In this document: positions 15,001 to 24,000 of the stretch, piece by piece
How the letters are laid out: each line of letters opens with the position of its first letter
How positions within the stretch are numbered: the first letter of the stretch is position 1
Origin: Parachlamydiales bacterium
GTDB taxonomy: Bacteria > Chlamydiota > Chlamydiia > Chlamydiales > Rhabdochlamydiaceae
Direction: 5' to 3'
DNA length: 64,000 nucleotides
Assembly: GCA_963705295.1 (NCBI GenBank)
Contig: OY970065.1
Coordinates: 544,001-608,000, forward strand
Position numbers: made by a program

Positions 15001-18000
15001 GAGAGGAAAATTACAAGATCGAATTGCATTTAAAGCGTTGGCGGAAGGTTTTCGTCATGAGCAGGTCAATCCGGCCTATGGCTCTCAAAGCTGTCCCCTT
15101 TGCGAATTTGTGGATCAACGAAATCGCATAGGAGACCGCTTTCAATGTCTACATTGTAGACATGAGGACACAGCAGACCGGGTTGCCGCATTGAACTATG
15201 CCAGAAGATTGGACGATCCCGAGATCGGACTGTATACGCCTTACAGCCAAGTTAAAACCATTCTTCAAGGCAGGTTCCATCGCCGATTGGAAATGGGGAA
15301 ACCCCTGACTGTTCCGGGCAGGACTCTAGAAACCGAACTAGGGATGAATCCACTGTTCCTATCGAGACTGAAAATGTCACAGCCGGGAGAGAGAAATCTC
15401 GTAAATACCGGACGGTCAATCAGAGAGCGAAACAAAATAAACACGTTTAAACACGTTTTTAGGAACAGTGCACAAAGGGACCAGTCTCAACCGTTATAAA
15501 AGGATTGAATCGCCCCGGTCCCCTTACATGAATACCGGCCCCCGCTTCCAATAGCTCCCTAACCCGATCTTTATCCCTAAGCCACGAAACAGCAAACAAC
15601 AGCGGTGTAATGGGTACAGACCAACCCTTAGAATTCTTAATTAAAAACGTCTCGTTTATTTTCTCTACAACCGGATCTCTCTTAACTTCCCCTAATCTTG
15701 TCCGCAATTTCACTCCTCACGGCATAGTTCGGTACATATTCTCTAAATGCCTTCCTGCACACCGGACAATACTTTTTCACCAAACTCGTCACACTTTTCT
15801 GCCCAAAAGAATGGCCACACGGAATCAACATCACCGCCTTCTCCATCACATCCAATGTCACCGGATCTATAAAGTTCTGAGAAACCCCATGTACTGAAGC
15901 CATTTAGCCTTCGCGTACATCTAAATCAAAGTGACATCCATCTTTGTGAACAAGAATCAATTTACGAGGAGCATCTGGATTGAAAGAGGGGTCAAATCCA
16001 GCAATATGAACTGCATGACCCCCAAGACTTCTTTCAATTTCAATGGCGATTTGAGGGTACATTTTGCTGAATGCATAAATTTCCGCCGTTGAAGCAAAGA
16101 ATCTGTCACGGTCAATGTGAGAGAAATAAACGTCATACTTCCTCCCAGCATCTCTCAGTAACTCCAGTGATGCATCGAGCTCACAATAACTTTGAAAACC
16201 TACAGAATGGATAAAGTCATCAATCGCTTGGTCTACATATCCTCTCAAGACAGAATCACCGTCAAAATTCCTACGCATCCAATCGACAACTTGAAGGCGT
16301 AAAAGGCTATAACCTGTACGTGTCTCAATCCCCAATCTCTGAAGTCCCCTAGCCAAAGCATGGAATAAACAATTCCCATCCCCAGGCACCGTTATTAAGA
16401 AAAGACCAGGTCGCAAGGCTTTCAGAATAACCAACGATTCCTCACACGCTGCAACAAGCTTAAAAGCTTTTTCACAACCAGGTTGTTCTTCACCATGTCT
16501 CACTCTAAAACTCTTTATCGCAACCCGTAACTTCTCCTCTTCAGCCCCACCCAAACCCCTCAGATTCCTTACAAGAGCTTCATATAAACCATTAATTTTA
16601 CCAGCGGCCTCTTCGATATCTCTTCTTAGACCTGGGGGGCAGACAGCTGCCGGTGCATTTACATGTTCGATCCGTCTTGAGCCTAACCGACTTCCCAAAA
16701 CGATTCCCAAAGTGAAAACAATCATCCCAATAATCGTCAGCGCAACCCGCTGAGTCACGCTTGTTACACCCGTCAAAAAATTAACCCGATTCAATAGTCC
16801 CGCATACGACCCCAAAGATTCAATCTTATTCAACATAAATCACCTCATTTTCCCAAAAGAATATCAACCATACATCCTATTCTTATCCATGCTTTTTTCT
16901 TTGCAAAAAATCTCTTTAAGTTTAGTGTCCCTACACAACGCCTAGTGCCTGATCACAAAATTCTTTATCAATCTTTGACCCATCTTTATTCCGCTGGGCG
17001 GCGCGCTCGCGCTTAACAGCTTGCTCGAAGATGCCGGCGCGCTCCGCGCTGTGCCCAGCGGAAAAATCTGGGCGCAAATCTTGACAAAGACTTTTGTGGT
17101 CAGGCACTAGATATCGATGAAAAAGTTCTTTTTCGCCTGCATTTCTTTTTGTCAGATTGATGGTGCGATTTTGCAACCATCGAGAATCATCCTTCTGCAC
17201 TCATTGAAGGATGTGTCAATGCAATAACAGGTCAAGTATATTTAGATGAAACAGATATCATGGTCCTTCGCACCCATTGGCTTGAATTAAGCATCTTAAG
17301 TATCGTTGATAGAAATAAAAATTATTGTTCTTGAAAACCTAAAAGATAATTTCTTGATAATCTTCGAAATTTGTAAAGTATAGCAATATGCAAAATACGC
17401 GGTCCTCCATTTAAAAAAAGCATCTTAAGACTCTGACTATCAGCTTCTTAGTCAGTTAAAATTTATCTTAAAAAGTTAAAGACATTTGTACAATTTTTTA
17501 TTGATTTTTTTGTCTGGAATTAGTATCATTTTTAGGTAAGTCAAAACCAAGATATGTTATGCAACTTAGAGATAAGTCCTTCAAAATAAACGGGAAGAAT
17601 CTATCAACATCAGATATTTATAAAATTGTTGGTGATTTTGAAATTAATGTTAGTGTTGATAAGGAAGTTGAAAATGGAATAAATGACTCTCACCAACTTC
17701 TTAATAAACTCGTAAAAGAAAATAGAATTATTTATGGTGTCAATACAAGTCTTGGAGGATTTGTTAACTGGTTAATCCCTTCAGAATTTGCTCAAGAGCT
17801 TCAAGAAAACTTAATATCTTCAGTGGCAAGCAATGTGGGTCCATATTTTAATGATATGATTGTTAGAGCTACTATTTTATCACGTTTAAATTCACTTGCG
17901 CGTGGAAATTCTGGAATTTCCCTTGAGAATTTCAATATTCTATTACAAATTTATAATTCAGGAATAATTCCTTGCATTCCTTCCAAAGGCTCTCTTGGTG

Positions 18001-21000: not shown

Positions 21001-24000
21001 GACAAAGAGGCAACCAATGTTTTTTTCCTACAATAAAAATCTGAGAATCCTGCTTGTATAGGTGCGGCTACCATTTGCAACACAAGAAATCCTGAAGAAA
21101 GTAGGAGTGATGTTAAAGGGGGTTGAGAGCCAAATACTTTTAAAATAGAGTTGTCAGCGACAACATCAGAAAGAATAAAGAGTACAAAAATGAGCAAATA
21201 TTTGTTCATATCTTTGATGGTTTGATGTATAGATAAACTCCATTTAACATTTCAATGCAAAAGCAATTTTGTTTTTTTAAACAATAGCTTTAGTTTCTTT
21301 TACAAAGAGGAGGGATATTGTGGAGATTATGGCTGCGAGGGCGAGGATGAGGATAAAGGAGCCTGGGGTGCCGGTGAGTTTAATGAGGCAGAGGCAAAGA
21401 TAGGTGATGAGGCCGCCGATGAGGCCATCGCAGAAGTTGAAGCTGAAGCCGATGCAGGTGAAACGGACTGAAACGGGGACGAGTTGGACGAGGAGTGAGG
21501 GTAGGAGAGCGAATTGGATATTGAGGAAGAGCATGAGGAGGGTTTCGAGGAGGAGGGTGTAGGGGAGGCTGTGGTGATTAATGGAGAGGTAGAAGGGGTA
21601 GGAAAGGGCTAGGGTGCCGAGGGCGCTTATGAGGAAGAGTTTTTTGTTGTTATAATAGTCAGCAAGGCGGCCGAAGAAGGGGATTGTGATGGCTGAGAGG
21701 ATAAGGAGGAAGGCTGTGATAAGGAGGTTGGTAGTGGAGGAGAGGTTGAATATTTTATCAAAGTAGACAACGGGAAATATGGCGAGGATGAAGTAACCGG
21801 CGACTTCGAAGAGGGAAAGGAAGAAGGCGAGGGTCATTTTGCCGGAGTATTTTTTGAATGACTCGAGGAGGGGTCGTCGAAGAACCATTTGCTTTTGTTC
21901 GAGTTCTTCAAAAGCCGGGGTTTCTTTGAGAGATTTGCGTAATTTGACGCCAAAAAGAGCCAGGATGCCGCCAAGTAGAAAAGAAATGCTAAGTCCCCAT
22001 TTGATTAGATCTCCAGAAAATATTTTCTCAAAAGCTGCGCTCTCGAGCAAACCTAGAATTCCGCCGATTTGCGGTCCAATAAAAGCAAAGCTGCACATGA
22101 GTCTCATATTTTTGGGCTTTGCATACTCTGCGAGATAACACATTGCACCGGGGAGTTCTCCTCCGGCTGGAATTCCCTGAATAAATCTTAAAAGGCCAAG
22201 GATGAGAAGGGAAACGATACCTCCTGTAGCATAAAATGGAAATAATCCGATTAGAAAGCTTGGAAAGGCAATGGCAAAAATAGAAAGAACAAAAGCTCTT
22301 CTTCGCCCTTTTTTGTCTCCAATCAGGCCGAAGATGATTCCTCCTAGAGGACGTGAAGCTAGACCGAGAGCAAAAATTAAAAAAGCATTTGTCTGTGCGG
22401 CAATTTGAGATTCAATATTAGGAAAAAGGAGTTTAGCTATAACCGGTGACCAATAAGCATAGAGGAAAATTTCGTACCATTCGAGAATGCCGCCGATGGT
22501 TACGGCAAAGATAACGGACCACTGGCTCCGATTAAGCCACATTCTTTGACTCCTGATTCTAGACTTGATAGTTTGAAATCTATATCAGGTAGAATTTCTT
22601 TTAGCAATCTACAATATGGATCGAGATGAGGGTCATTGGTAGGTTCCAATGTAAAGATACTGATCCCTGCAGCTATCGCAAAACCGATTTCCAAGATCGC
22701 AGCTCTGCCTAAGTAGGAATTGAAGTTTGCGACAACAATGAAGGTAGAGTGTTTGATTTTAGTAAAAACAGAGTCTTGGAGAAGTTTTGGGTCTTTAATA
22801 GGGTCTGAGTCAAAGATCACAAATTCGTCCTCGGGATTTACAACGGTTGTACCTGTGGGAGAAAGGACATGGAATCCCTTTTTTTCTAAAAGATGCTTTA
22901 GCACTAAAATTTGATTGAGATGTTTTCGAAATGAGCCAATGATAACTGTGCTGATTCCAGAGTCATTTTTGAAGAACATAGACGGCATAAGGGGCAACCT
23001 CTGTTTCTGAAACCCATGCTGTTTTTTCTTCAGGGTGTCCTAAAGGAAAATGCTTCTCTACAAGTTTGAGCCCTGCGAGTTTGAAAAGCTCTTCATAGTC
23101 GGAATCGGTCCAGAAATAATTGACGAAGTCTATTCCTCGATCTTTCAGTTGTATACGGGTGAGTTGTCCGCTTTTAGGGTTGCGATTCTCGTGGTAATTT
23201 ACATTATAGGATACCCAGTCGTTCGAATAGAGCTCCTCGGTTCCTGTGACCAATATGAAGATTCCTTCATCTCGAAGGCACCGATGGATTTCTTTCAGGA
23301 TTGCAAGGATTTCTTTTTTGGTAGAGATTGTGAAAAAAACGAAACATGAAAAAACTAGATCATATGAGTTGTCCAACACGGGAATTTGGCCACTTTTGAT
23401 GTGTAAGTAGTGAGACTCATCATCTATTGTCAAAGCCTGCGCTAGCATCTCTTTACTGACATCGACGCCGATCGTTTCAAAGCCGAATTTCTTTAAAAAC
23501 CGAGTAGAACGCCCTGTGCCGCATCCGTAATCAATGGCTCTTTTCCCTACGGTGTATTTCTCCAAGAAATAGGGTATATCCCGATATCCTAAATAATAGG
23601 TATTTTCTAAGCCAGAATCGGCATATTTTTTAGCGTTATCTTTGGTATCATTAAAATTCTTCGGAGGGGTGAGTGTTGCTGAATTGCCTTTATTTTTCTT
23701 TGACACTTTAGACTCCTTTGAAGACTCAATTAGATTTTAGCAGATCAAAGATTATCGTGTTAAATGTATTTTATTATTTTATAATGCCTTTATTTTCAAG
23801 TACTTATGAAAGAATTTAGATGTTTAGATTGTTCAAAACTATTAAGATTTTATTAATTTTAACCTAAATTCTTAATAAAATGTAGGTTGTGAGTTATGAA
23901 ATTTATATCTGAGATTCGAGATTCTCAATTTTCTCAGCTGTAAATTGATCGGCCAAAACCTCTATGGTTTCGTCGTAGAGGAGAAAAACAAAATGTTTGA

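Follow-up and report, generated by a model that had tools for sequence, protein, structure and literature searches.

The window, by which we mean the whole 64,000-nucleotide stretch of Parachlamydiales DNA that was analysed, contains three intact open reading frames (Table 1) where the genome-wide survey's note had placed a low-GC cassette of three genes. The trio is present as described, but a single operon is excluded: the MFS gene lies on the opposite strand and is convergent with the other two. The low GC content was borne out, with 34.5, 31.4 and 31.4% for the genes in the order of Table 1; the cassette as a whole has 32.6%, compared to 43.8% for the genome, and none of the sampled 3.65-kb windows is that low. 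The GC3 values of the cassette genes fall within the lowest 0.1–0.6% of the 1247 long open reading frames of the genome, and the cassettes of relatives have a lower GC content than their flanks at 17 of 19 loci. The three genes were most likely acquired horizontally, as a mobile cassette. No convincing terminal repeats were found around it, no Rfam match was found at 12000–27000 of the window, and the counts of a promoter/terminator scan did not exceed those of shuffled sequences (28 vs 25.1; 7 vs 4.7). The neighbouring genes (21277–23706) were considered as further members and rejected, as their GC3 is ordinary and their homologues occur at few loci only.

Table 1. Genes of the cassette (positions in the window)
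Feature	Position	Strand	Length
MIO-dependent phenylalanine aminomutase/ammonia-lyase, AdmH (S)-PAM clade	17559..19160	+	533 aa
Class I SAM methyltransferase, JHAMT/Tam-like, predicted carboxyl O-methyltransferase	19207..20001	+	264 aa
12-helix MFS transporter from a family specific to these clusters, predicted exporter, weakly similar to Tet(A)/DHA1	20004..21209	-	401 aa

The scores by which the first product had been assigned to the AdmH clade were reproduced: 794.2 bits against TIGR04475 (phenylalanine aminomutase, D-beta-Phe forming), just short of the cut-off of 800, versus 459.9 bits for HAL, with AdmH (3UNV) as the best PDB match (E = 2.6e-182). Among 22 scanned chlamydial relatives, which score between 764 and 837, 10 pass this cut-off. 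The histidine ammonia-lyase (HutH) cut-offs are not reached (score/cut-off, 460/524 and 448/539 bits), and Val89, not His, occupies the selectivity position. Alignment to 3UNV showed that the MIO triad is intact (A148-S149-G150, whereas AdmH has Thr-Ser-Gly), as are the catalytic residues Y59, N201, Y301 and R304. The pocket is formed by L85/V89 and F436; V89 and F436, the latter in a DFQD motif, align with AdmH in the pattern of an (S)-PAM. In a quick tree the chlamydial enzymes fall together with andrimid-type AdmH, and not with the enterocin type, on a single branch (95 SH-aLRT). With the active-site segments matching as well, membership of the AdmH clade holds, and the predicted active site is of the AdmH type. 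The tree does not sort the enzymes by cassette type but intersperses them, so that one activity is likely for all chlamydial members.

AdmH (PaPAM) of the andrimid cluster thus shares the catalytic and pocket residues; however, the cassette of the window lacks the carrier protein, the AdmJ-like A domain, the transglutaminase and the PKS (KS modules), all found at one related locus (L045), and the partner of its MIO enzyme is a carboxyl-type methyltransferase. The enzyme is 58% identical to a Mycetohabitans aminomutase whose gene adjoins an NRPS, and which we take to be HabB of the hab locus (habitasporins). HabB is likewise the phenylalanine aminomutase of an intracellular symbiont, and deletion there impairs host re-infection, but HabB supplies an eight-module NRPS (PMC9802438), whereas the cassette holds none. 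EncP, which comes from the enterocin cluster, belongs to the same MIO subfamily, and enterocin-like homologues are 50% identical in alignment; in contrast to the cassette, EncP-like loci hold a benzoate-CoA ligase, and the inner-loop sequence differs. As judged from these comparisons, sequence does not separate a mutase from a lyase, because enterocin-like enzymes also pass TIGR04475 (888 and 864 bits), AdmH itself turns into a lyase when warm (PMC3903478) and loop dynamics set the outcome (PMC6413883).

The second product is probably a carboxyl O-methyltransferase, with a methyl ester as the expected product, because Y14, Q21, H114 and W115 align with the four carboxylate-binding residues of insect juvenile hormone acid methyltransferase (JHAMT). 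This set is retained in all 11 full-length methyltransferases of the three-gene type, and is also present in unlinked paralogues. His114 is kept only in methyltransferases that immediately adjoin the MIO enzyme or are fused with it, as well as in some hybrids; the position is Met in 9/9 A-linked type II methyltransferases. The structural model (pLDDT 95.9) matches JHAMT over 237 aligned residues (Z 23.4, rmsd 2.8, TM 0.75), although identity to JHAMT/Tam (Tam, trans-aconitate methyltransferase) is below 20% in structural alignments. The best full-length models, BioC and Tam, both stay far under their NCBIfam cut-offs (90/185 and 58/297 bits). Since 4VPMT2 (Z 24.0), a phenol O-methyltransferase, shares first place with JHAMT among the structural matches, the fold alone does not fix carboxyl chemistry. 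At 7 related loci the JHAMT-like gene is replaced by a homologue of FmtB (3OCJ; E = 4e-54), so that what was called the methyltransferase of these cassettes comprises two unrelated families replacing each other. Of the 401 genomes (one, G005, covered in part), 58 have FmtB-like genes, mostly outside these cassettes, and the genome studied here encodes no FmtB homologue at that similarity. The known substrates of JHAMT, Tam and FmtB are all non-amino acids. The FmtB of Bordetella acts on fatty acids, and formation of fatty-acid methyl esters by this family was shown in vivo (PMC5426589).

Compared with DHA1 drug:H+ antiporters, the third product gives a mixed picture. A 12-TM MFS fold, motif A and conserved D15 and D344 are present, in addition to D57 and D115. 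Tet-type matches are weak, as the Tet(A/B/C) efflux model is matched by 34 of 46 family members, all far below its cut-off. The MFS profile matched no PDB sequence, and the fold search returned a mixed set (SV2A, NorA, PCFT and LmrP) that is not diagnostic of the direction of transport; the family is predicted to consist of exporters. The Glu of TM7 is replaced by A228, which is typical of the three-gene type: this Glu is lost in 8 of 9 three-gene exporters and kept in 37 of 38 other members. Its loss could reflect a neutral product. The three-gene exporters form a clade of their own (8 rows, 99 SH-aLRT).

Relatives' loci were surveyed in a phylum sample of 401 genomes, which yielded 30 loci with an aminomutase, spread over 29 genomes besides this one. 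The distribution is patchy (30 of 401). Recurrence of the trio was confirmed, as all three genes are found at 19/30 loci. A family MFS gene is present at 21 and a methyltransferase at 20, one of these only a distant paralogue; 13 loci have a Tam/JHAMT-type and 8 an FmtB-type enzyme, one locus having both. The frequent adenylation gene was likewise found again (16/30 loci), the A domains being of the NRPS type with the amine-binding Asp, whereas the aminomutase-methyltransferase fusion, said to occur once, was found twice (L076, L077). An EamA/YddG-like exporter is present at 6 loci and an ATP-grasp L-amino-acid ligase at 1. The genome-wide survey's note had counted it as a weakness that no adenylation gene lies beside this copy. 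The gene is indeed absent, but the three-gene form recurs as a type of its own, at 4/30 genome loci (a fifth being split over two contigs) and 6/14 close metagenome loci. The trio without an adenylation gene is stable as a type, as shown by the separate clade of its exporters and by the other three-gene genomes, of which 0/5 (completeness 82–97%) have an NRPS-type A domain (TIGR01733) above the cut-off. In 18 genomes in which no aminomutase was found, the partner of the family MFS is either a mini NRPS-PKS or a different methyltransferase; the exporter, and not the aminomutase, is therefore the common core of the cluster family, which occurs in about 10% of the sampled chlamydial genomes.

The earlier proposal of a small exported product is upheld, with the JHAMT-type carboxylate residues pointing to a probable methyl ester. 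We tentatively favour, at somewhat less than an even chance, the making and export of (S)-beta-phenylalanine methyl ester. The MIO enzyme would turn L-phenylalanine into (S)-beta-phenylalanine, with some leak of cinnamate, as suggested by its clade and active site. SAM-dependent methylation of the carboxyl group would then yield the ester, a step suggested by the carboxylate residues and by the recruitment of a second esterifying family; as some relatives have the two enzymes fused, the first may pass its product straight to the second. The dedicated, weakly DHA1-like transporter may use proton antiport to export the ester, an amphiphilic amine, to the inclusion or host cell. Such a scheme would work without a carrier protein or NRPS. 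The amine-handling partners in relatives (A domains with Asp, EamA/YddG-like exporters and the ATP-grasp ligase) support the mutase reading. The A-domain codes share D-x-L-C/S with the AdmJ-like code, but most carry an acidic pocket residue. However, the adenylation gene and the MFS gene also occur where there is no aminomutase, and beta-Phe is thus not necessarily what the A domain activates. The A-domain evidence is weakened in that one code is shared by loci that have an aminomutase (L110, L114) and one that lacks it (L091).

The strongest competitor, which we hold to be unlikely but serious, is a methyl cinnamate cassette, in which the MIO enzyme is a lyase in vivo, or the carboxyl methyltransferase irreversibly captures the cinnamate that leaks from it. 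Ammonia would be released, and the exported neutral ester would serve as a signal, as a deterrent or for detoxification. Cinnamate is closer than a zwitterion to the substrates of JHAMT, Tam and FmtB, and alpha,beta-unsaturated acids are methylated by JHAMT and by Tam. The restricted occurrence of His114 and the lost membrane Glu fit this reading, as does EncP, which works as a PAL at 30 °C (PMC3903478). Yet a small neutral ester should pass membranes unaided, whereas the exporter is the gene most constantly present, and it has diverged along with the three-gene type; moreover, sister enzymes adjoin amino-acid-type A domains, EamA or the ATP-grasp ligase, and no acyl-CoA ligase, of the kind present at enterocin-like loci, recurs at the chlamydial aminomutase loci.

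N-methylated beta-phenylalanine, or another non-ester methylation product, is improbable. Carboxyl-methyltransferase scaffolds have elsewhere switched to N-methylation, as in the xanthosine/caffeine enzymes found among the structural matches (Z 19–20), and the Foldseek list includes N- and S-methyltransferases; but the Y/Q/H/W site is complete, BioC and Tam are the best full-length models and the replacement gene is an FmtB homologue. It is equally improbable that the trio is the remnant of a larger cluster whose aminomutase feeds beta-Phe in trans to an assembly line. A three-module NRPS does lie 8.7 kb upstream (window start–8852), the genome also has a large NRPS-PKS, a KS fragment adjoins the aminomutase of one relative (L078) and known AdmH-clade enzymes feed assembly lines (PMC9802438). 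Against this, the local NRPS codes are unlike the AdmJ-like code, the other three-gene genomes gave no NRPS A domain above the cut-off, and the exporter clade and the two fusions argue for a selected unit. A catabolic or housekeeping role, with phenylalanine removed or broken down via beta-Phe and the transporter as an importer, is the least probable: more distant aminomutases (45–48% identity) do belong to another recurrent cluster, one that includes CoA-ligase-like genes, but neither a transaminase nor a CoA ligase recurs at the chlamydial loci, the distribution is patchy and low-GC, and the family MFS always adjoins biosynthetic genes.

Literature searches (chlamydiae with aminomutase; methyl cinnamate or methyl ester clusters) gave no description of the cassette, in agreement with the earlier note, and the main text of a genome survey of chlamydial biosynthetic clusters does not mention it (bioRxiv 2021.12.21.473556). 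The trio is the smallest in a family of small-molecule clusters that mix and match their parts, a family that has apparently not been described. More speculatively, and with no great likelihood, environmental chlamydiae may swap modular mini clusters in which a dedicated exporter and a carboxyl methyltransferase are combined with interchangeable front ends (phenylalanine aminomutase, carrier-less adenylation enzyme, one-module NRPS-PKS or MppJ-like keto-acid C-methyltransferase), secreting amino-acid-derived methyl esters as small-molecule effectors that act on host acidic compartments or on co-infecting microbes; the window would then hold the minimal, carrier-free beta-phenylalanine methyl ester member. 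Chlamydiae are known for protein effectors; if the favoured reading is true, a lineage that is obligately intracellular invests SAM and phenylalanine of its host in a small molecule for secretion, in parallel to the fungal endosymbiont Mycetohabitans, which uses a related aminomutase. The cassette would also be a source of an amino-acid (or cinnamate) carboxyl methyltransferase for biocatalysis. With two soluble enzymes, the three-gene form offers an entry to the whole family.

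The three genes lie where the genome-wide survey's note had placed them (table), and their low GC content holds as well: 34.5, 31.4 and 31.4% for the MIO enzyme, methyltransferase and MFS genes. Each ranks in the bottom 0.1-0.6% of 1247 long ORFs by GC3, and the cassette as a whole (32.6% GC vs 43.8% for the genome) falls below every sampled 3.65-kb genome window; GC3 is unremarkable in the neighbours at 21277-23706. Among named homologues, the best (73% identity) comes from a Rhabdochlamydiaceae bacterium. The palindrome 5' of the cassette has four further genome copies (~98% identity) and gave no match in an Rfam search.

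Features of the window and of related loci (window positions unless labelled; L-numbers are loci from relatives)
Feature	Position	Strand	Remarks
MIO enzyme ORF	17559-19160	+	intact
Methyltransferase ORF	19207-20001	+	intact
MFS ORF	20004-21209	-	intact; convergent with methyltransferase gene, 2-nt gap
Imperfect palindrome	16940-17112		170 bp; just 5' of cassette; fold z -8.8; MITE-like
IS607-like element	13283-15499		MerR-HTH/resolvase gene, then TnpB-like gene in two reading frames
Effector-like neighbour	8855-9934		microbial PARG domain
Effector-like neighbour	10986-12719		RING-TPR-ankyrin protein
Effector-like neighbour	15904-16836		OTU-like protein
165-aa ORF	22500-22997	-	nucleoside 2-deoxyribosyltransferase-like fold suggested by atlas features; no Pfam match; no homologue among clustered loci
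Second module, window	21277-23706		without HAL-like MIO gene
Second module, L076	10515-15393
Second module, L090	12595-18862
Three-module NRPS	window start-8852 (contig 543598-552852)	-	~3070 aa; 8.7 kb from cassette
PKS and NRPS-PKS ORFs, window genome	contig 1908624-1948159		9278 and 3908 aa
Type II-like cassette, L054	9944-15286		aminomutase, methyltransferase and MFS all in pieces
Split family MFS, L074	7315-11199
Split family MFS, L037	234-4365
Split family MFS, L017 with L105

The second module recurs near such cassettes and comprises a metabolite:H+ symporter-type MFS and a different methyltransferase, to which L076 and L090 add a divergent HAL-like MIO enzyme (552-560 aa, below the HutH cut-off) and more methyltransferases/GNAT.

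The MIO enzyme scores higher as an aminomutase than as a HAL, as claimed previously (794.2 bits for TIGR04475, the phenylalanine aminomutase model, just under its cut of 800, vs 460), and a PDB search again gave AdmH as its closest solved relative. It keeps Y59, A148-S149-G150, N201, Y301 and R304, has V89 at the selectivity position and shares the C-terminal motif DFQD with AdmH. A quick 33-row tree was rooted by us and left out truncated copies as well as two EamA-type copies that are nearly identical. Its 27 chlamydial rows cluster together (93); a Patescibacteria row attaches to them first (99), followed by an andrimid-type pair (SH-aLRT 95), in agreement with the proposed AdmH-clade placement. 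We take L045 and L047 (Photorhabdus viridis and P. kayaii records) to be andrimid-like and L050 and L051 enterocin-like, from gene content and known cluster layouts. The TIGR04475 cut was passed by 10 of the 22 chlamydial relatives scanned (range 764-837 bits) and also by two enterocin-like enzymes (888 and 864 bits); this model therefore cannot tell mutase from lyase.

The most likely route, which we favour tentatively, would convert L-Phe to (S)-beta-Phe by the MIO enzyme and this to beta-Phe methyl ester by the methyltransferase, the ester then being exported by the MFS transporter. We prefer a mutase for three reasons: in relatives the enzyme is accompanied by amine handlers (A domains with the conserved Asp, EamA, ATP-grasp ligase), no CoA ligase recurs at their loci, and a dedicated exporter is more readily understood for a cation than for a neutral ester. 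This last point weighs against methyl cinnamate as the exported product, a serious rival that we consider rather unlikely; in its favour, AdmH shifts to lyase activity in the warm, EncP acts as a lyase at 30 C (PMC3903478), and loop dynamics decide the mutase/lyase outcome (PMC6413883).

BioC and Tam were the best full-length models for the window methyltransferase, which stays well short of either cut-off, and its best PDB sequence match was juvenile hormone acid methyltransferase (JHAMT). The structure model (pLDDT 95.9) matched 4VPMT2, presumably a phenol O-methyltransferase (Z 24.0, rmsd 3.0, 253 aligned), tied with JHAMT (Z 23.4, rmsd 2.8, 237 aligned). Y14, Q21, H114 and W115 align with JHAMT Tyr7, Gln14, His114/115 and Trp115/116; these JHAMT residues hold the carboxylate of the substrate, and Gln14 is essential (PMC8526772 and PMC13223930). 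This tetrad is kept in 11/11 full-length methyltransferases of type I (the trio without an adenylation (A) gene, as in the window); L071 and L076 keep it too, in copies adjacent to the aminomutase or fused with it. The His is Met in all nine A-linked methyltransferases of type II (stand-alone A and Tam-type methyltransferase). In type III (stand-alone A and FmtB-type methyltransferase) the slot holds an unrelated protein with best match 3OCJ (E 4e-54), an orthologue of Bordetella FmtB, for which PMC5426589 reports raised methyl-ester fatty acids in vivo and no activity in vitro. The chief reason to propose a methyl ester is that two unrelated esterifying families occupy the same slot. Against over-reading this, the tetrad is also present in unlinked paralogues, and FmtB-like genes are spread over 58 of the 401 genomes in the phylum sample. 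N-methylation instead of ester formation appears improbable, as does, to the same degree, an aminomutase product supplied in trans; catabolism is the least probable.

As to a role for the beta-Phe methyl ester, amino acid esters build up in lysosomes and disrupt them, D-amino acid esters being inactive (PMC2188052). The latter counts against a beta-amino ester that lyses lysosomes; weak-base, signalling or antimicrobial action would be left, as speculation. The Mycetohabitans hab system is a precedent for an aminomutase important to an endosymbiont (PMC9802438); the window enzyme is 58% identical to the product of the presumed hab aminomutase gene.

At E<=1e-100, the MIO enzyme was found in 30 of the 401 genomes, window genome included, from 8 families of one order. 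All 30 aminomutase loci of the 29 other genomes were read: within 6.5 kb lay the family MFS (the cluster-dedicated transporter) at 21, a methyltransferase at 20 and an adenylation gene at 16, and the trio was together at 19, upholding both the recurrence and the frequent adenylation partner noted earlier. Type I accounts for 4 loci and one split over two contigs, type II (with MFS) for 7 and one split, and type III (with MFS) for 7; one locus has A-T and KS-T-TE beside the aminomutase, six syntenic loci of one genus have aminomutase and EamA only, one has an ATP-grasp ligase, a glycosyltransferase and another MFS, and two are cut by contig ends. The aminomutase-methyltransferase fusion does occur as one ORF, at two loci (804 and 805 aa) rather than the one first noted. 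Cassette GC was below flank GC in 17/19 loci and sister MIO enzymes often belong to different types, which points to mobile, reshuffled cassettes. Among metagenome loci at >=64% identity (14 of 80 kept), the trio was present in 8, six of them without A; the genome, named-record and metagenome sets partly overlap and are not additive, and kin are non-independent.

At the EamA loci (L061-L066; 6 of 9 sampled genomes of the genus) the sole partner is an EamA/YddG-like exporter, and adk, hsp20 and an ATP/ADP translocase lie next to the pair; a Ca. Rhabdochlamydia record (L041) repeats this layout. A different recurrent cluster combines an AdmH-like enzyme (54-60% identity) with an ATP-grasp ligase, two dehydrogenases and an ArgE/DapE-family peptidase (L120, L122-L126, L128, L131, L146, L149).

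The transporter is the core of the cassette family. At E<=1e-30 it was found in 39 of the 401 genomes, 21 with the aminomutase and 18 where none was found. All 18 loci of the latter were read: 14 have A-T and KS-T-TE (one split over two contigs), with the catalytic Cys and first His in 14/14 and a Tam-type methyltransferase alongside in 10 and not in 4; three have an MppJ-like methyltransferase (L101 copy: E 1.6e-11, both His motifs kept) with the FmtB-type, and one has the FmtB-type alone. Another genome (L088), in which no aminomutase was found, has a stand-alone A, a methyltransferase and the MFS in two pieces. The one-module NRPS-PKS clusters L085-L100 (14 chlamydial genomes; A-T and KS-T-TE without AT, methyltransferase, MFS) sometimes add a PPTase and a lipocalin-like gene.

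A 47-row MFS tree grouped by cassette type. Eight of the nine type I exporters formed one clade (SH-aLRT 99), and eight of nine carry Ala228, where 37 of 38 other family members have Glu, suggesting an exporter of its own that is tuned to the three-gene form. Replacement of the Glu could reflect a product with one charge fewer, or none; it fits either beta-Phe methyl ester or methyl cinnamate and favours neither. Export is predicted: 34/46 members match the Tet(A/B/C) efflux model weakly, and the 12-helix model of the window MFS gave mixed fold matches. Elsewhere the MFS is split: its N-half (178 aa) precedes the aminomutase on the upstream side, and its C-half (~282 aa) lies downstream, encoded on the opposite strand. 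Nine clusters of 281-282 aa suggest that the split transporter is conserved.

The enzymes are of known kinds. A literature search, mostly outside subscription journals, found no description of such a cassette, and the main text of a sponge-chlamydiae survey (bioRxiv 2021.12.21.473556) mentions neither phenylalanine, methyltransferase nor ammonia; its Data S10 may list NRPS-PKS members. The combination of carrier-free aminomutase, carboxyl methyltransferase and exporter appears undescribed, as does the modular cluster family around the exporter.

The cassette here has no adenylation gene, as stated before: at E<=1e-150, neither the window genome nor five further genomes of type I (82-97% complete) gave the family A domain, and none of those five has TIGR01733, the NRPS-type A domain model, over cut-off. 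The three-module NRPS and large PKS of the window genome are therefore probably unrelated to the cassette. The former has three A, two C and three T domains, a nitroreductase-like stretch and a TE, followed by a phosphopantetheinyl transferase; the PKS and NRPS-PKS ORFs are unusual for a 2.1-Mb chlamydial genome. At the code positions of GrsA, an AdmK-like control gave a Val-type code; codes were DAL(C/S)STEIGK in type III, mostly DPLSDC(V/A)(M/I)GK in type II and DMLCLGAMCK in an AdmJ-like protein, and DPLCSAEIGK occurred both with (L110, L114) and without (L091) the aminomutase. The A8 motif is degenerate in most type III A enzymes.
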